Source: a virus. Taken from it: DNA of 64,000 bases. Shown here one piece after another: positions 7,456 through 54,460 of this stretch. The DNA lies in IMG/VR virus record IMGVR_UViG_3300025598_000023, positions 32,001-96,000 of that record, one strand, 5' to 3'. The position numbers and the translations under genes are program-made. Under the pieces are notes generated by a model. That model was not told the origin of the DNA. It ran no database searches and saw only the letters and a program-made list of their open reading frames with translations. How positions within the stretch are numbered: position 1 is the first letter of the stretch; each line of letters begins with the position of its first letter.

Positions 7456-10400
7456 ATGGCAAAACGTAAAAGTGAAAACTTTTTACCACAAGTTTTTAGA
7501 ACTTTAGGAAATAAGCGTTTCTTAAATGCCACAATGGACCCACTTATTCAGGAACCAAGCCTGAAAAAGATGTATGGTTATATTGGTCAACAAGACCAAA
7601 GTCCTGTGTATAGTACAAGTGATTATTATATAAACGAGAATGACAGCTATAGTCAATTCTACCAACTTGAACCAGGCGTAGTAATTAAGAAACGTCAGTT
7701 AGGCACAAACACATACAAAGTTAGTAATGTTTATAACTATGTGGATTTATTAAATCAAATTTCTGCTGATGGTGGTCTTAATAATAATCATGACCGTCTT
7801 TTTACAAATCGTTATTATAGTTATAACGGATTTGTAGACCTTGATAAACTTACAAACTATCGTCAATATTATTGGGTGCCTGGCGGTCCTATGCCTGTTG
7901 ATGTTACTGCTGATTTAACACCAACACAAAAAGATTTTTATTTTCATCGTGTAAGTTATGTTGCTAACAATCAAACTGAATTACAAAGTGCTGCACTTGG
8001 TGAAACTGGTTATAGTGTTGATGGATACAACAATGTTGTTAATCCAACTATCACTCTGGTTCGTGGTGGCAGTTATAATTTTTATGTAAATCAAACAACA
8101 CAATTTTGGATTCAAACAGAAATTGAAACAAGTGGTACAAGCACTGTCCAAAGTAATATTTCTACTCGTGATGTTCTTGGTGTATCAAATAATGGAACTG
8201 AAAGTGGTATTGTTACTTTTACTGTTCCACTAAGCACTGCACAGGATTATCTAATAAATTATCCTACTTTGGGACAAACTGTAGATATTATCGTTGATGA
8301 TATTACTTACGAAGAGCTACAAGGCGTTAACTATGATAACTTTGTTTTACAATACAGTTTAGATGGTGTGCGTAGTTTTGATGGCAAATATGTAGTCTTG
8401 ACAAGTAATACAGGCTGGGCGGATGTTGACTCTAGCCAATGGCACGGTGTTTGGCGCATTAATGTCGATCCAGTAACACGATTAATGAATTTAACTTACA
8501 TTGCTGCTTGGGATAACCTTTATAAAGTATTTGTGAATCAAGGTGATGTGTATGGTCACGTTTATGCTTATAAAAACAACGTTGGTGTAGTCACTAAGTT
8601 TCCAACTCTTAGCGCAGCACAAAATGTGCTTTATTATGTTGATGCAGAAAATCAACTAGTTTATGGAACTATACGTTTAGTTGACCCTACACCAAATAGT
8701 TTGCTTAATGTAAATGACATTATAGGTAAAACAAATTACACAAGCCCAAATGGTGTGCAATTTACAACAGGACTAAAAGTTAAATTTACTGGTCTTGTTG
8801 TGCCAAGTGAGTATCAAGGCAATGAATATATTGTAGAAGGTGTTGGCAGTAGTATTAAACTTGTCAAATACAGTGATTTGGTAACACCAGAAACTATTAA
8901 TACTAATTTGGGAAGTAGTTTTGGTAATAGTCGAGGTTTTGATGCTGATGGCACTGGATTTGATGGAACCACTAATAGTCCAGAAATTAAAGATTATATC
9001 ACAATTAATCGTGCAAGCGTAGACGGAAATAGTTGGAGTCGCAACAATCGTTGGTTCCATCGTGATGTGCTACAAGCAGCAGCAAATTACAACAACACAA
9101 ACTATGCATTTGATAGCAATCAACAAGCAAAGCGTCCAATTGTAGAATTTTTACCAAACCTTAAACTTTATAATTATGGTCAAAATTATCGTGGTTATAT
9201 TACTTGTTTTGATAATGTAACAACAAGTGCCTTTTCGCAAATTGAAGGTGTCAATAGTTATGCTGTGCCTAAAGGCACATATGATAGTAAAAACAATAGA
9301 TTCGTTTATAACAGTGATGGTATACAACTATTAAATGGTGTAACAGTTGTTTTTATTAATGATATTGATCCAACTGTTCGTGCTACTCTATATCAAGTTC
9401 AAAATAACAAAACTCGCACTGCTGCAACATATAATCCTATTACTATAGGTTATTCAGGTGCAGATTCAACTCAACTTTTTATTAATGAATTAGGCAATAT
9501 TACTTTGGGTCAACATGTTACTGGCACTGGTATTGCTCAAAATACTACTGTTTTAAATGTTGATACCGTTAATAATGTTGTTACAATCAGTAATCCTATC
9601 ACAAGCGAAATACCAATTGGTCAAACAATTTATTTTGATAATAGTTTTGACCAAATTCATCTGGTTCCAATTAAAACATTTAGCGATGGTGATACTGTTG
9701 TTGCTATGGAAGGTGTTAATAATCAAGGCAATATGTATTATTACGCAAATGGCACTTGGACACTTGCACAAATTCGCAATAGTCGTCCACAGGCTCCGCT
9801 ATTTGATATCGTGGATGCAAACAGTATAAGTTTAAGTGACCAAACAGCTTATCCAAGCAGTAATTTTACTGGTAGCCAATTATTTGGATATGCAGTCAAT
9901 TTAACTCCAAATGCAAAACGTGATAGTGAATTGGGTTTTGCTCTTGTTTATAAAAGTATAGGTAATTTGGGAGATATTGTATTCCAAAATTACTATGCAA
10001 CCGACACATTTGATTATAATTTAAATCAAATTGACACTGTAAAAAATGTAAACACAGGCTATGCTGCTGTAATTAATAGTTATAATAATTATAGTTTTGC
10101 TAATGGTTGGTTCCGTGTTAGCGATAAAACAAAACAATACATCACCAAAACTTATAATGCTACAGTTATACAACTTAATAATTTTGATTTGGGTGTTGTT
10201 TATAACAATAGCTACTATGAAAACAATATCTTTGTTTATGTTAATGGTGTTTTGCAATCACGTGACAAATATACGCTACAAACAAGTTCTATAACAAGTG
10301 TTGTTAAATTTACAAATGATGTAGTGATAGGTGATCGCATATTTGTTAAAATATATGGCACAAGTGCACAGTATAAGCAAACTTACACTATGCCTCGCAA

Positions 10401-13400
10401 TTTAACTAACAACAGTGAAAATTCAGAATTTACAACAATTACACTAGGCCAGGTTCGCAATCATTTGATTGAAGTTGGTAATAATCTACTTAATTTAGTG
10501 GGTGAACCAGCAGGCGCTAATAATTTCCGTGATTTGAATTTTAACTATGTTGGTGGAAAATTACTACAACATAGCTCAAGTTTGCGACCAGCGGCATTGC
10601 TGTTTGCAAATAGTGATGTTGATCCTGTTCAAATTATACGCTTCGCAGCAGATAGCTATACAAATTTTAAAAATCAGTTGCTTGATTACATAAACAATCG
10701 TGAATTTGCTGATCCAACTAACTATGCAGCTTGCTTAGATTCCGTTCTCAAAGAGTTTGTAAATTTAAGCATTATCAGTTCACCTTTTTATTATACCGAT
10801 ATGGCTGCAAGTGGAAATGATTATTTAAAAAACACATACACCGTTAACAATACAACATATCGCAGTTATAATTTAACCCAAGATTTTAGTGATAATAACA
10901 AAGGTTATCGTTCACTATTAGTATACTTAAATGGTGTTCTGTTATTGAAAAACATTGATTATGTAATTAACTCAAAAGTAATTACTATCAATGATAGCGT
11001 CACTATTTCACGCAATGATGTTATTGAAGTTGTAGAGTATAGCAGCACTGCAGGTTGTAATATACCAGCTACACCAACAAAATTAGGCATTTATCCTAAA
11101 TTTACTCCACAGATTACTGTAGATGATAGCTATGTTGTGCCTACTACTGTTATCATTGGACATGATGGCAGTATTACCACTGCTTATGGTGACTACCGTG
11201 ATAATATTTTATTAGAATTTGAAAAACGTGTATACAACAATATCACAGTCACCTATGCCAATAATACTGATTACGATTTGCCAAGTGTTGTGCCTGGTGC
11301 TTTTCGCAAAACTGATTATAGCCTTACTGAATGGACACAATTACTTACACCTGCATATTTGCGTTGGAGCACTATCAACAATGTAAATGTATTTGATAAT
11401 ACAACTACTACTGGAAATGAGTTTACTTGGAATTACAGTAGTGGTGTAGATAAGTTGTTTTACAATCCAGTGCCAGGTTACTGGCGTGGAATTTATAGCT
11501 ATTTTTATGATACTGATAGACCACATACACATCCATGGGAAATGTTGGGTTTTGCAGAAAAACCAACTTGGTGGGAATTGCGTTATGGACCAGCACCATA
11601 TAGTAGTGCTAACAATGTTTTATGGACTGATCTTGAATTAGGTTTTGTATATGGCGGAAATCCAAATTTAAGTTATATTAACAGTCGTTACAGCCGTCCT
11701 GGTCTAAGTCAAATTATTCCAGTAGATGAACATGGTAATCTTGTGCCGCCAAACTTAAGTGTCATTACAAATTATGATGTTGCTACAGCAAGTCAAAATT
11801 GGCAAGTAGGTGACCAAAGCCCACAAGAAACTGCTTGGCGTCGTAGTGTAGATTTTCCATTTGCTGTCATGATTGCATGGTGTTTAGCAAGACCAGCAGA
11901 ATGGTGTGCGTTAAAATATAATACTCGTGATTTGACATATGTTGCAGCACTAAATCAAATAATCAATACAAAGACAAATAATCGCACATTTGATTTTACT
12001 GCTACAAGTGCAAATGATTATATACCAGGTTACAATGTATGGTTGCGTGATTATCTTACAAGCAATAACCTTGATATAATTGAAAACTGGAATAATGTCG
12101 TTAACAACAGCACATTCAATCTTGTTTACAAGATGGGTGCTTATACTGATAAAAGTTATCTAACAGTTGTTGCAGATCAAGTTAGTCCACAAAGCACAAA
12201 TAGTAGTGTTATTATTCCACAAGAAAATTACCAAGTTAAAGTTACTAAAAGTGCGCCTGTAGCACGTGCAGTATATAGTGCGGTTGTTGTTCAAAAAGTA
12301 ACTAATGGTTTCCAAATTACTGGATTTGACAAAGAACGTCCTTACTTCTTGACAATACCAAGTCGTGTCAGCAGTAACAATTATGGAATTGCAGTTGGAA
12401 ATCAAACAGCCATTATCTATCTTGATGCAGCAGAAGGTATTGTTACATATCCTTATGGCACTATCTTTAATACTACACAACAAGTAGTAGACTTCTTAAT
12501 AAGTTATGGTCGTTATCTTGAATCACAAGGATTTAGTTTTAATGAATTTTTAAGTGATAATTCAACTAAAAGCGATTGGACACTTGCTGCAAAAGAATTT
12601 TTATTCTGGGAACAACAAGATTGGGGTGATAGCACAGTTATAAGTTTAACCCCAACTGGCACCAGTGTTAATTTTAATAGTCTGTTTGGTATCGTTGACA
12701 CTATCACTAACACAAACAATTACACTAAAATTATCAATAGTGATAATGTCACGCTTACTGGTCGTGATTATCGTGTGTATCGTGATGACAACAACTTTAG
12801 TGTAACGCTGAAAAATGCGCAAAAAGGTATACACTTACTGGATATTGCTATTGTTCAGTATGAGCATACACTTATTTTTGATAATAACACTGTGTTTAAT
12901 GATATTCTTTATGATGAACAAACAGGCAGTCGTCAATTCCGACTGCGTATTGATGGCAGCAAAACACAAGATTGGAATGGTTCACTTTATGCGCCTGGTT
13001 TCTTTGTTAATGTAAGCGATATACCACAATGGGCTGCTTATACTGATTATTACACAGGCGATATTGTTCTATTCAAAGACAAGTATTATGCAGCACAAAA
13101 GTTTATACCAGGCACACAAAAGTTTGCAACCAGTGACTGGTATCTCATTAACGGCGATTTACTGTCTAAAAACCTAATTCCAAATATGGCAAGTGGTGCT
13201 GCACAGTTTATTAATTTCCATGATCCTGATGCAACTGACTTAAACAGTGCAGCAGATGCACTAAGCAAGAGTGAAACTGGATTTAGTCCACGCCAATACT
13301 TCACAGATTTGGGATTAGATAATACAAGCCAATATAAATTTTATCTTGGTATGATAGCTCAAAAAGGAACACAAGCTGTTCTTAATGCTTATCTACGCAA

Positions 13401-16400
13401 TTATCAAAAGCGTATTGATAGTAACATTAAAGTTAATGAACAGTGGGCTATTAAACTTGACAATTATGGTGGCACAAACGATAATGATAAATTAGAATTT
13501 AATATTGGTAATGCAACAAGTATCAATAACCAATACTTGTTCCAATTTATTAATGACACAGATGTTAGAAGTGTTGAATATAATAGTGTAAAACCAAGCG
13601 ATTTGTTATACAAGCCTCGCAGCTATACTACTGAAATCTTTGCACTTACTGAGCCACGCAAGCAAATTATACCTACTGCTGGTCCAGTCAATACAAGTGA
13701 TGTATCTGCCACAGTTTTTGATATTAGCAAGATTTACAATATATCAGCACTAAGTTCAATTCTTGGCGAAGGCAGTAAAATATGGATTGCTGCCGATACT
13801 AGCAATCAATGGGGCGTTTATCGCTTAAGTTCTACTGCTCCGCTTACTGTAGTTTCAGTTACCCAAGTAAGTCCAACAGAATTACAATTTACTACTAATG
13901 TTGCGCATAATCTATCACAATTTGATTATATTATGCTTAAAAATGGCAAAGTTCTTGGAACTGTAAGCAGTGCAACTGTTGTAGATTTAAGTGGATTTTA
14001 CAAAGTAAGCAGCGCAACCAATAACACATTCAACGTTAAAATCATGAATAATATAAGCATTGGCACTGGCTCTTTAGCAGCGACTATGCTTAAGTTAATT
14101 AATGTTCGTTATTCTACAGGCAATGACTTTGCAAACTTTATTCCAGTTCGTGGTTGGAATAGTGGCGAAATTGTTTATATTGATAACGGACCAAATGGCT
14201 ATAATGTTCTACAGAATACAAACAATTGGGCATATGCACAAACTAAAAGCCCAACATACACTGTTCCAAGTGACAACTATGGCAGTAGTGTAAAAATTAA
14301 TCATAGCCAAGGTTTTGCAATAGTTGGTGCGCCAAATAAAAATACAAGTGGCAGTGCTTTCATCTATGGCAAGCGTCAAGACAATACTTGGCAAGAAATT
14401 GGTATTCTAACTCCTGATAGTCGTGTCCGTGGTTTTGGTAGTAACGTTGATATTAATACTAACGATATAGCGTTTTTAAGTGCACCAACCACAAATAAAG
14501 GTGTAGTTTATACTGCTAATGTAAGCAGCCAGCAAATACAATTAACACAAGCTATTCACTATGATAATCTATATGTCATAAGTGCTGGTATTTCTCAAAG
14601 TAATGCATATTTGTTAATAAGCAATGTTAATGTTTTTGATGCTACCGCTAACATTGCTGTTCAAGCAAATTATAGCTTGGCTAATTTTGCTAATGGTATG
14701 GCAGTTGCCGTGCCTGGTGCAAACTCAACTATACAAATTGCAAATATTAGCTATGGATATCCATATCATAAGATTGGTTTAACTGCAAACTTAGCAACTC
14801 TTGGTCTTACTATCAGCGGTTCAACTAAGGTTGCAATTTACTCTAATGTAACACCACAAAGTCAGTTCGGATATAGCATTAGCGCAAGTGGCGATGGTAA
14901 TTGGTTGTATGTTGGCGAACCAACTACAAATAGTGTGTATGTTTACAAATATAATACTGTAGCACCCGTTACTTCATTGCGTCAAGGTGACGGTGTATCA
15001 ACCAGTTTCTCATATCCAAGTGGTGCTACTGGCAGTGAAAATGATGTTAAAGTATATGTTGATGGTGCGCTTAAGATTCCTTATCTTGATTATATTAAAA
15101 CACCAGGTCAAAATGCAATCACATTTGATGTAGCACCAACTGGTGGTTATGTAGCAAACGTGCTTACAACAAGTGGCGGTGTTGGCTATTATTATGGCAA
15201 TACAAGTGTTACGTTTAGTCCACCTTTAAGTGGTGTGACTGCTACAGGTAATGTTTGGATTTACCCAAACACAGCAATTGGTGGTGTGATTATCACAAAT
15301 CCTGGTAAAGGATATGGTTCTTTAGCACCTACTGCAACTATTAGTAGCACAAGTGGCAGCGGTGCTATTCTTACACCTGTACTCTACAATGCAAACATTG
15401 CAATTGTTTATGAAAGCCATTGGACAGAGACAAATAGAATTGTCACTGATGACCCACAAGTCGGTGGTTTTGGAACAAGTGTAAGCACAAACTATGATGG
15501 CAGTGTTGTTGTAATTGGTGCAGCTAATAGCAGTGCAACATTTAGTTCAACATATAACAATGCAGGTAAAACTTATATCTATGACCGCACTGCGGAAGTA
15601 TTTGTTGCTGATGGTGCTACAACCACATTCCAATTAAGCAATGCATTAGCTAATTTAACAACTATTACTACACCTACTCTTACTACAAATCCAACTATAT
15701 TTGTAGATGGTGTAATTGCACAACCCACAGTCAATTATAGCACAAATTCAATTACTTTTGGTAATGCGCCTGCACGTGGTAGCACTATCACTGTTCAGAC
15801 AAACCAATTCATTAATACTAAAATTGGCACAACTGATGTTGGACAACAAAATAGCAATTATGGAACTGCTGTTAAAATTAGTAGCGATGGTAGCAGTGTG
15901 TTCTCATCAGCTACTGGTTATGGTTTAAGTTCAAGTCAGAATGGTGTTGTTTTCTATCTGCTTAACATACCACAAAAGTATGGCACTGCAATAGGTAGTA
16001 AATCAAACTTTACAATGACAGCTAACAATGCTGTGCGTATAAATGACCAATTAGTTACATTTACTGGTGGTAGTGTAACACAAACTGTCAATGATATCAA
16101 TGCGGCAAATATTCCACATGTTACTGCTTCTGTATTGTCTAACAATGCAATCTCAATCACTACAACTGATGTTAACAGTGCAGCAAAATTGCGTCTGCGC
16201 AATGAAGTAGGTGATCCATTAAACACTATGGGTATTGTTCAATGGCACACAATTCAACGTTTGAACAACCCTATTGCACAAGACACAGCACACTTTGGTG
16301 AAATCTTAAGTTTAAGTCCAGATGGCAATAGTTTGGTTGTTGGCAGCACATTAAGTAACACCAAAGCAAAAACAACATTTGATAACAATACTACAACATT

Positions 16401-19400
16401 TGATATCAATAATATCAAATTTATTGATACAGTGTATCGCAGTGGTGCTGCACACATCTATGAATACCAAACACTAAGTGATGAAAACTATTCAAGCTAT
16501 GGAAGTTATGCATATGGAACATTAATTAATGACCAATTTGCAAACAGCTTTGACCGTTATTCAACTGGTGTTGATATTAGCGATAACTTTATTTTAGTTG
16601 GTGCTCCACAAGCAAAAATACTTGGAAACCAAACAGGCGCACTATATGTCTATTACAATCCTAATGCTCAACCAATTTGGCAAAGCATACGCAGCGGTGG
16701 TGTAGATTATGATAGTCGTAAGATTGACCGTGCTTACATTTATAATAGCACAACTGCAAAACTTATTGCAGATTTGCCAGTTTATGATTTAACAAATGGC
16801 TATTTGCCAAATGAAAGTGAGACATATCTTGATTTTGTTATCAACTATGATCCAGCAGTTTATAACAAGGTTCCAACTACAATTAGCTTTAACTATGATC
16901 GTAAAAATGCTTGGGGCAAAGAAAAAGTTGGAAAACTTTGGTGGGATATTAATAGTATAAAATACTATGACAACACACAAGGCTCTACACTTGATAGATT
17001 TAACTATTGGGGATTAGCTTTTCCAGCAAGCACAGTTAATGTGTATGAATGGATTGAAAGTAGTGTTCCGCCAAGTCAATATGTTGGCTCAAGTGCAAAC
17101 AATACTCCACTTTACACTATTAATGAAGTGTATAGTTCACATGTAGAGATTGATAGTGCAACTGGTTTGGCTGTTACAAAGTATTACTTCTGGGTAAAAA
17201 ATAGCACACTAAGTTCTGGTTCACGACCAAGTGCATTGGAAATTCAAGGTCAAATCAGCCTACCTCGTGCAAGCAGTGAACCATTTGCAGCAGTAATATC
17301 ACCAAATGCAATTGCACTATTCAATGCTAAAAATCTAATCAGCATTGATACCAATATGGTTATTGAATATAAAGATGTTCTGAAACCACAGCTAACTCAT
17401 GCCGAATGGACTATGTTTGATGATGGCACAGATTTAGGTGTGGCATATGAGTTCTTGAATAAACTTAATGATAGTCTAACTGGTCAAGATAGTAGCGGTA
17501 GAATTGTTCCTGATCCAAAACTTCCTATTGGTCAACGTTATGGCATGGATGTAAAACTACGTCAAAGTTTATTCAAAGATCAATATACTGGACGCAAGCT
17601 GTTTGTTGAAAATGTAAATCAAGTTTGCACAACATATCCAATGGTTCTTACTCGTGGAGCAGCAATTGCAGCATTGGACAGTTATGATCCAATTCCAGAT
17701 TCAACTCATTATAAAACTGTAGTAGCTAATATTACTGAATTGGGTTATCTTGATACCAATACATATCTTGCTGGTGACCAAGTTCTTGTTTTAAGCGATA
17801 GCAACAGCTATAATAACGGTTGGAGTTTATATAGACTAAATGTTGTATTCCCTAATACTAGAACATGGGAAATTATACAAGTTCAAACTTATAACTTAAA
17901 CAATTATTGGAGTTATGCTGATTGGTATAGCAATCAATATAATCCACAAGCACAACCAAAATATACTGTTACAACAGAAAATGATATTAGCAATTTACAA
18001 CTTAATGTTGGTGATATCATTTATGTTACTAACAGTTCTAATGGAGGTTGGAAACTTGTTCTTGTGACAATTAATAGTCTAGAACTATTAGCTCAGCAAA
18101 ATGCTACAATACAATTTAATACTAATTTGTATGATCTAGTTGCTGCAAACCAAGGATTCCAAACAAGTAGTTTCCAAAGTGTTGGATTTGATAGCGATAG
18201 CAATTTAGAATTTAATAAAATATTCAATATTATTCGTGATGAATTATTAATCAATGAATATCGCAGCAACTTTAAAGATTTAGTAAAACTCATGATTGAT
18301 ACGATTGCTACACAGCATCAGCAAACAGATTGGTTAATGAAGACCAGTCTAGTTGATTTGTATCATCGTGTTCGTGGTTTGGATCAATTACCAGTTTACC
18401 TTCCACAGCCAGAAACTACTGTCACAAGTTTCTTTAGTGAAGTAAAACCATATCACACTAAGCTAAAACAATATATTGCAACATATGATAATACTGATTC
18501 TATTGATGTTGCATACAACAATGTAACTGATTTTGATTTACAACCATATAAAAACAGTGTTGTAAACAAATATCGCAGTCCACAATTAGGCAATAGCTTG
18601 GATACTAACGCTTTAGAAACACAAAGTGTTTATCAACCATGGCTAAACAACCATTCTTATGGCGTTAAACGTGTTGATACAGTCACTGGCGGAGTTGGTT
18701 ATGATGCAAATACCACAGTAACTATTGTTGGTGATGGCACTGGTGCAACAGCACAAGCGTATGTTGTCAATGGCAGTGTTTACACAATTACTGTTACTAA
18801 TAGCGGTGTAGGCTACACTTATGCAAAAGCATATATTTTTGGTGTTGGAACTGGTGCAACAGCTACTGTGATTCTTGGCAATGGATTGGCTCGTACAACA
18901 AACACAATTATTAAGTATGACCGATATACATATTTTAATAATATTCAAGATTGGGCTGCTAATACTTCCTATACTGTAAACACGGTAGTAGTGTATAATG
19001 CTCAACCATACCGTGTTATTACTGCTCATACAAGCGGAACTACATTTGATTCAACTAAGTTTGTGCAACTTGTAGTAAAAGTTTGGTATCCAGAAACACA
19101 ATATGCACTCAATGATGTAGTCATTTATAAAAATACAAGTTATACAGTCAATGAAACATTTACAAGTGCTCTTACATTTGATACAGCCAATTTGACAGCG
19201 TATAACGGTCTATGGCTTGATAATGCATGTGACCGTGTTTGGGCATACTATGCCCCAAAAAGCGGTATGGCTGGTCGCGATTTAGCGCAAGTTATGACTG
19301 GAATGGAGTATAGTGGCAATCAAATTATTGGTCCTAACTTTAATCAAACACCAGGTTATGATGTAAACAATTACGACTACATAGCTTATGATTATGAAAC

Positions 19401-21453
19401 ATTTAACGTAGAAAATGTTGCAGACGTTTATGGTTCACAAGCAGAAGACACATACATTCAAAGTTTGTTTACTGACACTGGTTTAGGATTGCGACCAGAA
19501 GATATTAATATTGTTGGCGGTGATTTCTATGATGCTTACAGCAGCCATGCACCAGAAGAATTTGTGCCTGGTCAAGTATTAGATACACTTGATATTAAAG
19601 TAACTACCACTCCTATTGCAAATGGCGGACCAGATATTAAAATCTTTACTGTAAATTATCAAGGTTTAAAAACATTTAGTTTTGATAAAGCAATAACTGG
19701 TGTTGACTATCCAGTTGGTGGTATTGAAAAGTTTTATATCGTTGACCATTTACAAGGTCCACTTGCTGAATCTGTTAATTATAGTGTAAACTGGCAAAAT
19801 AAAACTATCAGTCTAAACTACACACCACAGAGCGGAACTTATTTTTATTCCATGATGATTGGCTCAAACGGTGTAAATCCAGTATATGATCAAGATTATT
19901 ATGGTGATGGTGTTCAAACTGATTTTGCTGTAAACGGTTGGACTCTAAACACAGTTAAGCAAGCATATGTTAAAGTAAATGGTATAGCTGTATCTAATTG
20001 GAGTTTAGTGAATATTACACAGAATGGTGTTGGAACTCTGGCAGTTCGTTTTGCAACACCTCCACATGTTAATGATTATATTCAAGTTCATTTATATAAT
20101 GTTGCACTTGGAACTCGTGCGTATAGCGAATGGTATGAGCAAACATTTACTGTGCCAAATGCAAGTTATCCAAGTGGATATAATTTTACTTTAGCCAATC
20201 CAGAAATATACTCACAGCCAATCTCTGCTTATGCTATTGTAAGATTGAATAATAGTGACTTATTACCACCACAACAAAGTTATTATATTGGGGATGGTAT
20301 CACAACAAACTATAGTTTAACAAACAGTTGGACAGAAACAATTGCAAATATTGTTGATACAGAAATTATGGTTTTGGTTAATAAGGTTCTACTTACACGT
20401 AATATTGATTACACTGTGTATCATGATCCACTTAATATTGCAACACCTGTAATACAATTCACAACTGCACCAGCAAGCGGAACTTCAATTGTAATAAGTG
20501 ATGCAAGCCAATGTGATTTTAGAATTTATGATGGAAATCAACTTTGGATTAGCCAAAACGTTGTAATACCACAAAATAGTGTAATTACTGTTTTATCTCA
20601 AGGCAATCACGATGCAAATAATCAATATACCAAGTTGTTTAGTGGTAGCACAAGCAATAATAGCTTCTTGGATAACGGTTTAGATAGTGGTGGATTTGAT
20701 GCTCTTGGTTTTGATAATGAACTTTCTAATTTGATTGGACAAGTTTACTATACATTGCCTACTGCTGTATCAAATATAAATCAAATCTATATAACTTTGA
20801 AAACACCTAATACAACTGGTGGTAAACCATTGTTACCATATACAGATTATGTGTTAGTAAACCCAACAACTATCGTATTAAGTAGCACACTTAATATCAG
20901 TGGCGCAAGTGTTATTGCGGTTCGTATTTTTGGTAATCCAATACGTGAACATAACGTAGAATTTAGAATATTCAAAGATATGCGTGATACTACTCGTTAT
21001 TATGCGGTGAAAAATAATAAAACAATTCTGTCTGCAAATTTAATGCCAAGCGACAGTTGGGTTTATGTTGAAAACGTGGATGTATTACAGAATCCAGAAC
21101 CATCAACAAATACTGCTGGTGTTGTTATTATTAATGGTGAACGTATTACATATGGCGTTATTGACACTATAAACAAGCGTTTAGGAAACTTGCGCCGTGG
21201 CACGGCTGGCACAGGATTGTATAATAACCATGTTGCTGGCAGTGTTGTATATGATAGTGGCAACTTATTAGAAATTCCAAATAGTCGTGAAACTTACACA
21301 GTGGCAACTAACCCAACATATATAACAAATGGAAACATTTCACTTTATGTTGCTGCCAATAGCACAATACGACAAAGCCACATGTTTGTAAATTTGGGTG
21401 AAAGTATTCAAACAAGTAACACACCATATGCACAATTTATTAGGGCACAGTAA
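7456..21453 (+). CDS. Giant (4665 aa) baseplate wedge / gp7-like multidomain virion protein
   Basis: Follows gp6; DLDKLTNYRQYYW and VKPYHTK motifs typical of jumbo-phage wedge proteins; FG-GAP-like repeats, CBM5/12-like repeats, GDGxxTxF repeats; C-terminal INGERITY..LRRGTAGT. Confidence 0.75.
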   Translation: MAKRKSENFLPQVFRTLGNKRFLNATMDPLIQEPSLKKMYGYIGQQDQSPVYSTSDYYINENDSYSQFYQLEPGVVIKKRQLGTNTYKVSNVYNYVDLLNQISADGGLNNNHDRLFTNRYYSYNGFVDLDKLTNYRQYYWVPGGPMPVDVTADLTPTQKDFYFHRVSYVANNQTELQSAALGETGYSVDGYNNVVNPTITLVRGGSYNFYVNQTTQFWIQTEIETSGTSTVQSNISTRDVLGVSNNGTESGIVTFTVPLSTAQDYLINYPTLGQTVDIIVDDITYEELQGVNYDNFVLQYSLDGVRSFDGKYVVLTSNTGWADVDSSQWHGVWRINVDPVTRLMNLTYIAAWDNLYKVFVNQGDVYGHVYAYKNNVGVVTKFPTLSAAQNVLYYVDAENQLVYGTIRLVDPTPNSLLNVNDIIGKTNYTSPNGVQFTTGLKVKFTGLVVPSEYQGNEYIVEGVGSSIKLVKYSDLVTPETINTNLGSSFGNSRGFDADGTGFDGTTNSPEIKDYITINRASVDGNSWSRNNRWFHRDVLQAAANYNNTNYAFDSNQQAKRPIVEFLPNLKLYNYGQNYRGYITCFDNVTTSAFSQIEGVNSYAVPKGTYDSKNNRFVYNSDGIQLLNGVTVVFINDIDPTVRATLYQVQNNKTRTAATYNPITIGYSGADSTQLFINELGNITLGQHVTGTGIAQNTTVLNVDTVNNVVTISNPITSEIPIGQTIYFDNSFDQIHLVPIKTFSDGDTVVAMEGVNNQGNMYYYANGTWTLAQIRNSRPQAPLFDIVDANSISLSDQTAYPSSNFTGSQLFGYAVNLTPNAKRDSELGFALVYKSIGNLGDIVFQNYYATDTFDYNLNQIDTVKNVNTGYAAVINSYNNYSFANGWFRVSDKTKQYITKTYNATVIQLNNFDLGVVYNNSYYENNIFVYVNGVLQSRDKYTLQTSSITSVVKFTNDVVIGDRIFVKIYGTSAQYKQTYTMPRNLTNNSENSEFTTITLGQVRNHLIEVGNNLLNLVGEPAGANNFRDLNFNYVGGKLLQHSSSLRPAALLFANSDVDPVQIIRFAADSYTNFKNQLLDYINNREFADPTNYAACLDSVLKEFVNLSIISSPFYYTDMAASGNDYLKNTYTVNNTTYRSYNLTQDFSDNNKGYRSLLVYLNGVLLLKNIDYVINSKVITINDSVTISRNDVIEVVEYSSTAGCNIPATPTKLGIYPKFTPQITVDDSYVVPTTVIIGHDGSITTAYGDYRDNILLEFEKRVYNNITVTYANNTDYDLPSVVPGAFRKTDYSLTEWTQLLTPAYLRWSTINNVNVFDNTTTTGNEFTWNYSSGVDKLFYNPVPGYWRGIYSYFYDTDRPHTHPWEMLGFAEKPTWWELRYGPAPYSSANNVLWTDLELGFVYGGNPNLSYINSRYSRPGLSQIIPVDEHGNLVPPNLSVITNYDVATASQNWQVGDQSPQETAWRRSVDFPFAVMIAWCLARPAEWCALKYNTRDLTYVAALNQIINTKTNNRTFDFTATSANDYIPGYNVWLRDYLTSNNLDIIENWNNVVNNSTFNLVYKMGAYTDKSYLTVVADQVSPQSTNSSVIIPQENYQVKVTKSAPVARAVYSAVVVQKVTNGFQITGFDKERPYFLTIPSRVSSNNYGIAVGNQTAIIYLDAAEGIVTYPYGTIFNTTQQVVDFLISYGRYLESQGFSFNEFLSDNSTKSDWTLAAKEFLFWEQQDWGDSTVISLTPTGTSVNFNSLFGIVDTITNTNNYTKIINSDNVTLTGRDYRVYRDDNNFSVTLKNAQKGIHLLDIAIVQYEHTLIFDNNTVFNDILYDEQTGSRQFRLRIDGSKTQDWNGSLYAPGFFVNVSDIPQWAAYTDYYTGDIVLFKDKYYAAQKFIPGTQKFATSDWYLINGDLLSKNLIPNMASGAAQFINFHDPDATDLNSAADALSKSETGFSPRQYFTDLGLDNTSQYKFYLGMIAQKGTQAVLNAYLRNYQKRIDSNIKVNEQWAIKLDNYGGTNDNDKLEFNIGNATSINNQYLFQFINDTDVRSVEYNSVKPSDLLYKPRSYTTEIFALTEPRKQIIPTAGPVNTSDVSATVFDISKIYNISALSSILGEGSKIWIAADTSNQWGVYRLSSTAPLTVVSVTQVSPTELQFTTNVAHNLSQFDYIMLKNGKVLGTVSSATVVDLSGFYKVSSATNNTFNVKIMNNISIGTGSLAATMLKLINVRYSTGNDFANFIPVRGWNSGEIVYIDNGPNGYNVLQNTNNWAYAQTKSPTYTVPSDNYGSSVKINHSQGFAIVGAPNKNTSGSAFIYGKRQDNTWQEIGILTPDSRVRGFGSNVDINTNDIAFLSAPTTNKGVVYTANVSSQQIQLTQAIHYDNLYVISAGISQSNAYLLISNVNVFDATANIAVQANYSLANFANGMAVAVPGANSTIQIANISYGYPYHKIGLTANLATLGLTISGSTKVAIYSNVTPQSQFGYSISASGDGNWLYVGEPTTNSVYVYKYNTVAPVTSLRQGDGVSTSFSYPSGATGSENDVKVYVDGALKIPYLDYIKTPGQNAITFDVAPTGGYVANVLTTSGGVGYYYGNTSVTFSPPLSGVTATGNVWIYPNTAIGGVIITNPGKGYGSLAPTATISSTSGSGAILTPVLYNANIAIVYESHWTETNRIVTDDPQVGGFGTSVSTNYDGSVVVIGAANSSATFSSTYNNAGKTYIYDRTAEVFVADGATTTFQLSNALANLTTITTPTLTTNPTIFVDGVIAQPTVNYSTNSITFGNAPARGSTITVQTNQFINTKIGTTDVGQQNSNYGTAVKISSDGSSVFSSATGYGLSSSQNGVVFYLLNIPQKYGTAIGSKSNFTMTANNAVRINDQLVTFTGGSVTQTVNDINAANIPHVTASVLSNNAISITTTDVNSAAKLRLRNEVGDPLNTMGIVQWHTIQRLNNPIAQDTAHFGEILSLSPDGNSLVVGSTLSNTKAKTTFDNNTTTFDINNIKFIDTVYRSGAAHIYEYQTLSDENYSSYGSYAYGTLINDQFANSFDRYSTGVDISDNFILVGAPQAKILGNQTGALYVYYNPNAQPIWQSIRSGGVDYDSRKIDRAYIYNSTTAKLIADLPVYDLTNGYLPNESETYLDFVINYDPAVYNKVPTTISFNYDRKNAWGKEKVGKLWWDINSIKYYDNTQGSTLDRFNYWGLAFPASTVNVYEWIESSVPPSQYVGSSANNTPLYTINEVYSSHVEIDSATGLAVTKYYFWVKNSTLSSGSRPSALEIQGQISLPRASSEPFAAVISPNAIALFNAKNLISIDTNMVIEYKDVLKPQLTHAEWTMFDDGTDLGVAYEFLNKLNDSLTGQDSSGRIVPDPKLPIGQRYGMDVKLRQSLFKDQYTGRKLFVENVNQVCTTYPMVLTRGAAIAALDSYDPIPDSTHYKTVVANITELGYLDTNTYLAGDQVLVLSDSNSYNNGWSLYRLNVVFPNTRTWEIIQVQTYNLNNYWSYADWYSNQYNPQAQPKYTVTTENDISNLQLNVGDIIYVTNSSNGGWKLVLVTINSLELLAQQNATIQFNTNLYDLVAANQGFQTSSFQSVGFDSDSNLEFNKIFNIIRDELLINEYRSNFKDLVKLMIDTIATQHQQTDWLMKTSLVDLYHRVRGLDQLPVYLPQPETTVTSFFSEVKPYHTKLKQYIATYDNTDSIDVAYNNVTDFDLQPYKNSVVNKYRSPQLGNSLDTNALETQSVYQPWLNNHSYGVKRVDTVTGGVGYDANTTVTIVGDGTGATAQAYVVNGSVYTITVTNSGVGYTYAKAYIFGVGTGATATVILGNGLARTTNTIIKYDRYTYFNNIQDWAANTSYTVNTVVVYNAQPYRVITAHTSGTTFDSTKFVQLVVKVWYPETQYALNDVVIYKNTSYTVNETFTSALTFDTANLTAYNGLWLDNACDRVWAYYAPKSGMAGRDLAQVMTGMEYSGNQIIGPNFNQTPGYDVNNYDYIAYDYETFNVENVADVYGSQAEDTYIQSLFTDTGLGLRPEDINIVGGDFYDAYSSHAPEEFVPGQVLDTLDIKVTTTPIANGGPDIKIFTVNYQGLKTFSFDKAITGVDYPVGGIEKFYIVDHLQGPLAESVNYSVNWQNKTISLNYTPQSGTYFYSMMIGSNGVNPVYDQDYYGDGVQTDFAVNGWTLNTVKQAYVKVNGIAVSNWSLVNITQNGVGTLAVRFATPPHVNDYIQVHLYNVALGTRAYSEWYEQTFTVPNASYPSGYNFTLANPEIYSQPISAYAIVRLNNSDLLPPQQSYYIGDGITTNYSLTNSWTETIANIVDTEIMVLVNKVLLTRNIDYTVYHDPLNIATPVIQFTTAPASGTSIVISDASQCDFRIYDGNQLWISQNVVIPQNSVITVLSQGNHDANNQYTKLFSGSTSNNSFLDNGLDSGGFDALGFDNELSNLIGQVYYTLPTAVSNINQIYITLKTPNTTGGKPLLPYTDYVLVNPTTIVLSSTLNISGASVIAVRIFGNPIREHNVEFRIFKDMRDTTRYYAVKNNKTILSANLMPSDSWVYVENVDVLQNPEPSTNTAGVVIINGERITYGVIDTINKRLGNLRRGTAGTGLYNNHVAGSVVYDSGNLLEIPNSRETYTVATNPTYITNGNISLYVAANSTIRQSHMFVNLGESIQTSNTPYAQFIRAQ

Positions 21454-45657: not shown

Positions 45658-46507
45658 CTTCTAAACTTGTCTTTGGCGTGTAGCCAAGATATTGCACAGC
45701 ACGGCGAGTATCAAGCGCACCACGTTTTGGCATATCAAATGGTATGCCATCACCATATATAATTTTGCTTTGTGTTTTTGTCCAATCTCTTATTACATTG
45801 ATAGCATCTTGTAGTGTTCTTGCGCTTCCATAACTTACATTAGCTATAAAATTATGTGTGTCAAATAGTGCAGCATTTGTGATAGCCTGTGCTACATCTT
45901 CTACATATGTAAAATCTAATGTAGCATGTGGATCATCTACGTGGATTGTTTCTTGATTAAGAGCAGCTTTTATCCATTTAGAGATGACACGATTGCCATC
46001 ATCACGGTTACCATATACAGCAGTAGGACGAATGATTACCCATTTCTGTGCAATAATTCTAACAAGTTCTTCGCACATTTTTTTAGCCCTACCATAATCA
46101 TTGATAGGTTTAAGTGGTGTATCCTCTGCGATAGAGTCTTTCCAGTCACCATATACCATACTGCTGCTTATATAAACCATTTTTGCATTAGGGTATGTTG
46201 TTAATAGATGAATAGTGCTTTGAACTGTATTGCGCCAAGCAGACAAGTTGTCTTTGGAAAAAGTTGCTTGATTTGGTTCACCAGCGAGATGGATAATAAC
46301 ATCGACATCTTGAATAACAGTTTTGCTGCAATCAGCATTGATCCAATCATCATATGCAAATTCCATATAACGACCACGTTCCAAATATAAATCAGTAGTA
46401 ATATATCGTAAATCATCAATAATTGTAACACGATGATTAGCATCTATTAGACGTTTTACAACATGATGACCAATAAATCCAAATCCACCTGTAACTAATA
46501 CATGCAT
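45629..46507 (-). CDS. NAD-dependent NDP-sugar epimerase/dehydratase (extended SDR)
   Basis: MHVLVTGGFGFIG, IIHLAG, ISSSMVYG, YGRAK, RPTAVYG, DFTYVED; start moved to ATG 46507. Confidence 0.88.
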   Translation of the reverse strand: MHVLVTGGFGFIGHHVVKRLIDANHRVTIIDDLRYITTDLYLERGRYMEFAYDDWINADCSKTVIQDVDVIIHLAGEPNQATFSKDNLSAWRNTVQSTIHLLTTYPNAKMVYISSSMVYGDWKDSIAEDTPLKPINDYGRAKKMCEELVRIIAQKWVIIRPTAVYGNRDDGNRVISKWIKAALNQETIHVDDPHATLDFTYVEDVAQAITNAALFDTHNFIANVSYGSARTLQDAINVIRDWTKTQSKIIYGDGIPFDMPKRGALDTRRAVQYLGYTPKTSLEDGINKLLQS

Positions 46508-53591: not shown

Positions 53592-53619
53592 AATATAACA
53601 GATTATTCTTGGTTGTCAA
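53592..53619 (-). promoter_or_regulatory. sigma70-type early promoter
   Basis: TTGACA-N16-TATATT (TGT extended), ATTATAG, GGAGAA SD. Confidence 0.75.
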
Positions 53620-54295
53620 GCACTTTTTTTGTCTCTAAAAGTGGCTGAACCTTCATTTTAATCCGCACATAATGCAGACGTGTTTTGCTGTCCTCATCAT
53701 GTTTATGGATGCGGGCTGTCAAAATAATGACACTTCCACGCTCAAATTTTTCGGCAAACGGAAATAACACAAGGCAGTTATCTTCTGTCAGTCCAGTATG
53801 ATACCACTTGTTATAATTATAGCTAAAAACTGCCGAAATAATGGTGATTTTTCCTTCAAAATTATCACCTACTTTGCCAAAATGTCGGCTATTTGCTTGC
53901 AAAGTATTAATTTCATCACGTGCATTTTCACGAGCAATAGCATTTTTATATGAGCTTGGAACACTAGCAATTAGTGCTAAAGTCTTGTAATCATTAGCTA
54001 AAAATTCTTTCTGTTCAGTCAATAGAACCAAATTTCGCCAATAATCGTGCAATGTGCCGCCAATAAGTTCAAACATTTTACCATCAAGATATTCAATAAT
54101 TTGTTCAGCACTTTCAATATCTTGTGGCAAAGCATTAACGTGTTCAATTTCAGGATTAAGGATATCACGCATCAATGCACCGTTGCTTTCCTCCCCCTTT
54201 TCTTTGTCAGCTTCATAGCGTTTGATATAACGACCATTAATTCGTTGTGCCGCACAAGCAGCAGAAATAGCGTCTTTTAAGGTAATATTAGTCAT
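53603..54295 (-). CDS. Hypothetical protein, possible C-terminal OB-fold
   Basis: 230 aa; C-terminal beta-rich G.VG..TRLHYV pattern; ATGA-coupled to the ArfA-like ORF. Confidence 0.65.
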   Translation of the reverse strand: MTNITLKDAISAACAAQRINGRYIKRYEADKEKGEESNGALMRDILNPEIEHVNALPQDIESAEQIIEYLDGKMFELIGGTLHDYWRNLVLLTEQKEFLANDYKTLALIASVPSSYKNAIARENARDEINTLQANSRHFGKVGDNFEGKITIISAVFSYNYNKWYHTGLTEDNCLVLFPFAEKFERGSVIILTARIHKHDEDSKTRLHYVRIKMKVQPLLETKKVLDNQE

Positions 54296-54408
54296 TTTGC
54301 ACCTTTATGCTTGTTTTTACGGCTATAGCTACCCTTGCCCTTACGGGGGGTGACAATTTTTTGACGATATTTGGGGTCCGCAAGTGACTTTGCAATAAGG
54401 CTACGCAT
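54292..54408 (-). CDS. ArfA-like alternative ribosome-rescue peptide (38 aa, not in ORF track)
   Basis: Hand-translated MRSLIAKSLADPKYRQKIVTPRKGKGSYSRKNKHKGAK*; own promoter, GGAGAA SD, ATGA overlap with next gene; matches the ArfA core LxDPxFRQ..KGKGSYxRKxKH. Confidence 0.7.
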   Translation of the reverse strand: MRSLIAKSLADPKYRQKIVTPRKGKGSYSRKNKHKGAK

Positions 54409-54432: not shown

Positions 54433-54460
54433 AATTTAGCATATTTTTGGGATTTGTCAA
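54433..54460 (-). promoter_or_regulatory. sigma70-type early promoter
   Basis: TTGACA-N16-TAAATT (TGC extended), ATTATAG, GGAGAA SD. Confidence 0.72.

Follow-up and report, generated by a model that had tools for sequence, protein, structure and literature searches.

A 38-codon ArfA-like gene in a jumbo-phage lineage and its place in a short ArfA subfamily

The locus and its phage

The window analysed here, i.e. the whole stretch of 64,000 nucleotides, comes from a 111-kb IMG/VR virus record that is rated 33% complete. On its minus strand lies a gene of 38 codons encoding a small, ArfA-like peptide, which is accompanied by its own expression signals and is placed between genes of 126 and 230 aa (Table 1). 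An earlier note, made from the sequence alone, had pointed to a 38-aa minus-strand frame with a TTGACA/TAAATT promoter, a GGAGAA Shine-Dalgarno sequence and an ATGA coupling to the next gene. The frame reads as the peptide described there, and all three signals were located and are conserved in related contigs.

Table 1. The ArfA-like gene, its signals and its immediate neighbours (positions are those of the window)
Feature	Position	Strand	Details
ArfA-like gene, 38 codons	54292..54408	-	CDS 54295-54408, stop TGA 54292-54294; ORF, Pfam ArfA match of 39.5 bits, pN/pS of 0.13
Sigma-70-type promoter	54433..54460	-	-35 TTGACA 54460-54455; -10 TAAATT 54438-54433; conserved in 13 related contigs
Shine-Dalgarno sequence GGAGAA	54415..54420	-	GGAG 54420-54417 ends 8 nt ahead of the ATG
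ATGA stop/start overlap with the downstream gene	54292..54295	-	present in 13/13 relatives
Downstream gene, 230 aa, viral-only family	53603..54295	-	nearest clusters are viral hypothetical proteins
Upstream gene, 126 aa	54457..54837	-	stop codon inside the -35 hexamer TTGACA

The minus-strand block around the gene encodes a DNA polymerase, a 5'-3' exonuclease, an HNH endonuclease and a MoxR-type ATPase. The TGA of the ArfA-like gene (54294-54292) overlaps the ATG (54295-54293) of the 230-aa gene, and the translation of the two is probably coupled; they are presumably also co-transcribed from the promoter of the former. The 230-aa product could be assigned to no known family of Pfam, PHROGs or the protein atlas, where it finds viral hypothetical families only. 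Elsewhere in the window, the plus-strand structural block contains one open frame of 4,665 codons (7456-21453).

Sequencing datasets in which the phage is present are freshwater and lake DNA metagenomes. One related contig, G001 (locus L007 lies within it), has a length of 338 kb, carries direct terminal repeats and is rated complete; a complete relative of this size places the phage in a jumbo-phage lineage, whose G+C content is ~35%. G001 encodes approximately 20 tRNAs and an RNA ligase of the T4 Rnl1 type (e.g. G001:C1:280587-281174), which is circumstantially in keeping with a phage that tends the translation apparatus. Neither in the record from which the window was taken nor in the complete relative G001 did we find a release factor, tmRNA, Pth or RtcB. 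Lacking its own release factor and tmRNA, the lineage must rely on those of the host. The neighbouring ATPase is 46% identical to that of the PA5oct-group Pseudomonas jumbo phages, a similarity too distant to name a host.

Evidence for a coding gene with its own promoter

The same gene was found in 13 related IMG/VR viral contigs. Its stop is located at the identical codon in the window and in all of these relatives, and the pooled pN/pS ratio, calculated for the 11 distinct coding sequences of the relatives, equals 0.13, with differences that are mostly synonymous. The -35 hexamer is invariant across the 13 contigs and the -10 element keeps the form TGn-TAnnaT, while the spacer is variable. 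In the window this spacer has 16 nt and ends with TGC, i.e. it provides an extended -10, and the site scores 10/12 with the TG extension included. The GGAGAA sequence is kept in 11 of the 13 contigs, one base being changed in L011 and the sequence reading GTAGAA in L013.

The promoter is not a solitary one. The pattern TTGACA-N16/17-TAnnnT occurs at 11 sites in the 64-kb window versus 3.8 expected, a number reached in none of 100 shuffles. Eight of the 11 sites are on the minus strand, between positions 45837 and 60669, five of them with the TG of an extended -10, and those of them that were compared with the ORF lists are placed directly upstream of gene starts. The conservation of the promoter, the Shine-Dalgarno sequence and the overlap, together with the low pN/pS ratio and the enrichment of the promoter pattern, argues for a coding gene with its own promoter, and the earlier claim of such a promoter is thereby strengthened. 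The ORF at 54292..54408 (-) is a protein-coding gene under purifying selection. It is probably read by the host RNA polymerase, and the type of the promoter as well as its neighbourhood suggest that the expression is early.

In one relative (L013:5983-6117) the ArfA-like gene has GTG in place of the ATG, but six codons further upstream there is an ATG in frame, from which a form of 44 residues results. The same length is called for three relatives in the databases (P0001, P0003 and P0007). The gene start is therefore uncertain in some lineages.

Similarity to ArfA and retained residues

The earlier note had likened the peptide to ArfA and suggested a search with the Pfam ArfA model. The match of the peptide to this model (PF03889) covers profile positions 18-44 of 44 and reaches 39.5 bits (E 3.8e-10), the cut-off being 25.5 bits. 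This bears the likeness out, and a six-frame genome search with the same model gave 37.4 bits. No NCBIfam model matches the peptide, and megablast of the region against isolated phages yielded no match. The E. coli ArfA chains of the PDB ribosome structures, with which the core quoted in the earlier note agrees, match at E ~2e-5; the peptide aligns to residues 16-46 of E. coli ArfA with a constant offset of 11 residues. Judged by its sequence, the peptide is an ArfA homologue.

The retained residues fall into the channel-binding tail and the RF2-docking segment. As for the former, the KGKGS motif corresponds to residues 23-27 of the peptide (K23-G-K-G-S27-Y28), Arg41-Lys42 of ArfA are kept as R30 and K31, and Lys44-His45 correspond to K33-H34. 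The KGKGSY motif, the basic tail and the KH motif are thus all present, at positions that are 75-100% conserved both in the long and in the short ArfA forms discussed below, except for the His. The C-terminus of the peptide corresponds to ArfA residue 49; the cryo-EM density of ArfA ends at residues 46-48, and ArfA 1-40 is inactive (PMC8012679).

The docking segment is also present: Pro23 corresponds to P12, Phe25 to Y14, and the strand Gln27-Glu30 to Q16-V19 (QKIV), its last residue being Val versus Glu30 in ArfA. In E. coli ArfA, Pro23 packs on A1492/A1493 and the strand Gln27-Glu30 adds to the RF2 sheet (PMC8012679, PMC5378476). Prediction of a complex from the peptide alignment and RF2_ECOLI gave a score of 0.28, with the mark set at 0.32, and was counted neither for nor against docking.

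Lack of the minidomain and of the non-stop control

By its usual description, ArfA serves some beta- and gammaproteobacteria as a back-up factor, is produced from non-stop mRNA only and needs an N-terminal minidomain to open RF2. The phage gene departs from this description in both respects.

In E. coli it is the folding of the minidomain (residues 2-16 with Ile11, Ala18, Leu19 and Leu24) that opens RF2 (PMC5378476). No counterpart of this minidomain was found in the phage peptide, which starts at the equivalent of residue 12 and is devoid of residues 1-11, including Thr7, Lys8 and Ile11. Furthermore, Ala18 is replaced by Lys, Leu19 by Ser, Leu24 by Lys and Glu30 by Val. The loss of the ArfA N-terminus, as asserted in the earlier note, holds true for residues 1-11, and the change goes beyond these, the key minidomain residues Ala18, Leu19 and Leu24 having been replaced as well. 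The Leu19/Leu24/Phe25 patch, which holds Trp319 of the RF2 switch loop (PMC5378476), retains one of its three residues, the aromatic one. Ala18 is buried in E. coli ArfA against Ile11 and C1914, and the A18T substitution abolishes activation (PMC5378476); ArfA(A18T) still binds and recruits RF2, and no hydrolysis is triggered (PMC8012679, PMC5378476). No N-terminal deletion of ArfA turned up in a search of the literature. With the minidomain missing, the activation of RF2, if it occurs, must differ from that in E. coli.

The regulation differs too. The frame is closed by a genuine TGA, 10 residues past the motif and at the position corresponding to ArfA residue 49, and the hydrophobic extension of 27-54 residues is missing; the canonical arfA genes that we fetched from Enterobacterales and Pasteurellaceae continue for 27-54 further codons after the motif. 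No hairpin or RNase III site was found in the frame, nor any terminator-like site on the gene strand, and the search for a structured mRNA element was negative, the fold being no better than that of shuffled sequences (z = 0.51). One terminator-like stem (54335-54353) was rejected as a candidate: it is on the opposite strand, within the coding sequence and with no plus-strand gene upstream, and was taken as a chance occurrence. The genuine stop, the lack of an in-frame hairpin and the lack of a hydrophobic tail indicate that tmRNA-gated non-stop control is absent, in agreement with the earlier proposal that this version ends in a real stop and escapes such control.

A short ArfA subfamily in phages and SAR11

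The homologue search was performed with a query consisting of the 38-aa frame and two more upstream codons. A profile built from the peptide together with its relatives retrieved 338 clusters (50% identity, E <=1e-3) among 1.84 billion representatives, mostly of 35-50 residues, and in viral contigs relatives are present at at least 270 loci. For P0002-P0008 the gene contexts were read from the IMG/VR loci. For 64 distinct viral ORFs, the median distance from the motif to the end of the frame is 10 residues, and in 54 of these ORFs the distance does not exceed 17 residues. The short subfamily is defined here by a motif at residue 20-31 and a frame end at most 17 residues later.

Positions conserved in the short subfamily are, relative to the motif, Asn -20, Ala -17, Lys -16, Leu -14, an aromatic residue at -9 and Val -4. 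The window peptide fits this subfamily, with its motif at residue 23, a tail of 10 residues, and A6, K7, L9, Y14 and V19 in place; its residue 3 is Ser where the subfamily has Asn, and Asn is found in two close relatives. When anchored at the motif, the long and the short forms share Asn14, Leu20, the aromatic residue, Arg28, Val/Ile29 and the entire tail. The fixed differences of the short form are Glu17 to Ala, Ala18 to Lys, Leu24 to Lys, Glu30 to Val and Asn32 to Pro, and the window peptide follows the short pattern.

Among bacterial genomes two cleanly separated architectures were observed, i.e. the long form in Enterobacterales, Pasteurellaceae and Colwellia, and the short form in SAR11. 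According to reviews and a 2024 survey, ArfA is confined to beta- and gammaproteobacteria (PMC8012679, PMC11633108), and the survey reported no arfA in 2,376 Alphaproteobacteria (PMC11633108). A Pfam ArfA match was obtained in 38 of the 121 sampled genomes of SAR11 (order Pelagibacterales), 16 of them above the cut-off (loci L022-L085, e.g. L024:2992-3108, genomes G004-G125; one of the 38, G117, is unpublished, and nothing rests on G117 alone). The SAR11 proteins have 37-42 aa, the motif at about residue 25 and the stop 7-12 residues later, and their genes sit in a housekeeping context (dapB, a PfkB kinase, a response regulator). They share the architecture of the window peptide and are 53-68% identical to it over ~30 residues; in contrast to it, they are cellular, located in housekeeping neighbourhoods, and most lack the KH motif. 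The fact that the same short form is kept in SAR11 chromosomes argues for a function of this form itself, rather than for a merely decayed or inhibitory fragment.

ArfA as a phage annotation is not new. JGI names close relatives of the gene ArfA, and in GenBank ArfA is annotated in Brevundimonas phage Kikimora and its kin (36 aa) and in Citromicrobium phage RXM (g10, 60 aa). Together with gp30 (58 aa) of pelagiphage HTVC027P, these proteins resemble the window peptide in being phage-borne and in having a core of the PF03889 type. They differ from it in that the core is only 45-56% identical and the hosts are Alphaproteobacteria. Kikimora has the same short, stop-terminated design as the window gene, whereas RXM g10 has a C-terminal and HTVC027P gp30 an N-terminal extension, both of which are absent from the window peptide. 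The extension of RXM g10 (L017:1486-1668) has 22 residues, is partly hydrophobic and continues past the basic tail, as in cellular ArfA. Phage ArfA is briefly touched on in two papers, one of which reports that HTVC027P gp30 is transcribed during infection; for the short ArfA proteins, whether of phages or of cells, no study of function was found in the literature.

The earlier note needs correction in that the gene is no oddity: a short design ending in a stop is the norm in a large subfamily, and close relatives already bear the name. Based on sequence comparison, the gene is an ordinary member of this large short ArfA subfamily, which has been annotated but for which no functional study was found.

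Two further observations concern the wider family. In several viral contigs (L126, L128, L129, L153, L181; proteins P0043, P0070, P0134) the ArfA-like module is fused, on its C-terminal side, to a conserved Gly- and Lys-rich region of ~70 residues, and Pfam matches the ArfA part only. ArfA-like stretches were also noticed inside the annotated 1203-aa gp38 of Roseobacter phage CRP-212 (L020:1201-1293), antisense to an annotated hypothetical gene of Ralstonia phage RsoM2USA (L021:1201-1314), and in Caulobacter phage Cr30 (11142-11237), where there is no annotation at all. These three are likely missed or mis-called small genes.

Proposed mode of action and alternatives

Based on these observations, we suggest, with moderate confidence, that the gene encodes a ‘mini-ArfA’, i.e. 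a constitutively made factor, dependent on a host release factor, that frees non-stop ribosomes. The host RNA polymerase would transcribe the gene together with the next one from the sigma-70-type promoter, and the basic peptide of 38 residues would be made without tmRNA gating. Its C-terminal half (KGKGSY, Arg/Lys and KH) would enter the mRNA channel only if the channel is empty, that is, in ribosomes that have reached the 3' end of a cut or truncated message and stalled there. The middle part (Pro12, Tyr14 and Gln16-Val19) would then be placed in the A site and dock a class-I release factor of the host (RF2 being the most likely one) through a strand added to the sheet of domain 2/4 of that factor. 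Hydrolysis of the peptidyl-tRNA by the release factor would follow, and the ribosome would be recycled for phage translation. For the phage, the benefit might be the recycling of ribosomes during host mRNA decay, tolerance of RNase-type defences, or avoidance of ssrA tagging. In this scheme we infer that the peptide binds the ribosome, which release factor is its partner, when it acts and how the phage benefits.

Activation is the weak step of this scheme. The release factor may be activated in another way by the short N-terminus with its conserved residues (Asn/Ser, Ala6, Lys7, Leu9), or else the peptide only binds. In the latter case it would fill the empty channel and the A site, perhaps recruiting compact RF2, and would be unable to open it; it could then act as a competitor of tmRNA-SmpB or as a plug on non-stop ribosomes, e.g. 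sparing truncated phage products from ssrA tags or dampening host rescue. The A18T variant described above sets a precedent for such a state, and the phage peptide has Lys at the Ala18 position, lacks residues 1-11 and has two of the three patch residues replaced by polar ones. However, the same short design has been retained in the streamlined chromosomes of SAR11 and in hundreds of phage lineages, and ribosomes trapped in this way would cost the phage its own translation capacity. Moreover, the N-terminal residues of the short subfamily (Asn -20, Ala -17, Lys -16 and Leu -14) are strongly conserved, pointing to a working surface rather than a remnant. We therefore regard binding without release as unlikely.

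Another small factor of this kind is ArfT of Francisella tularensis, which has 40 aa and a genuine stop, acts with RF1 or RF2, and is reported to have low similarity to ArfA. By description, the phage peptide resembles ArfT in its architecture, i.e. a length of ~40 aa, its own stop, the lack of non-stop control and a basic tail with a KGKGS-like stretch; it differs in that KKGGSTNKK is quoted for ArfT versus the ArfA-type motif of the phage peptide, a comparison likewise made by description. By analogy, ArfT shows that a stop-terminated peptide of 40 residues can activate release factors. As the N-terminal half of the phage peptide differs from that of ArfA, it could be proposed that the peptide is a rescue factor that uses release factors in a manner unlike ArfA, e.g. 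RF1 as well as RF2. The size, the genuine stop and the absence of non-stop control match ArfT, and the RF2-specific patch (Leu19, Leu24 and Phe25, facing Trp319) is mostly replaced. On the other hand, the sequence is of the ArfA type (KGKGSY, PxxY and the QKIV strand) and passed the ArfA model, while ArfT is described as being of low similarity to ArfA, so this use of release factors seems quite improbable.

It is very doubtful that the peptide is not a ribosome factor at all, being instead a generic basic nucleic-acid-binding peptide or a leader ORF driving the 230-aa gene, since, even though it is very small and very basic and its ATGA coupling is conserved, its match to ArfA is specific and above the curated cut-off, its amino-acid sequence is under purifying selection, and the family is found in many gene contexts without the 230-aa neighbour.

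The reading as a working ‘mini-ArfA’ is favoured by the conserved tail and docking strand, by the retention of the short form in SAR11 and by the precedent of ArfT. Among the known factors, E. coli ArfA (YhdL; PDB 5MGP, 5MDV, 5U4I, 5H5U, 7OJ0) is the nearest one, being homologous over residues 16-46 with the channel and RF2-docking residues; unlike it, the phage peptide has no residues 1-11, ends at a genuine stop and is encoded without an in-frame hairpin or RNase III site. BrfA of Bacillus subtilis is comparable in its RF2-dependent rescue, in the addition of a strand to RF2 and in a KH motif in the channel, but its sequence is unrelated, its N-terminus is helical and it is under non-stop regulation.

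Significance

The short genes represent a second, simpler ArfA design of ~38 residues, with an ordinary stop and without the minidomain, which is common in phages and present also in SAR11. Tentatively, it is possible that the short ArfA peptides of phages and SAR11 constitute a minimal rescue module of 35-45 residues, which activates a release factor without the minidomain, and that phages express it constitutively from early promoters, thereby bypassing the tmRNA gating and keeping ribosomes free during the destruction of host mRNA or RNase-type defence. A peptide of 38 residues is within reach of chemical synthesis. If active, the short peptides would be the smallest ArfA-type rescue module, and phages would bring their own ribosome-rescue capacity into the host, which bears on mRNA decay and on RNase-based defence.
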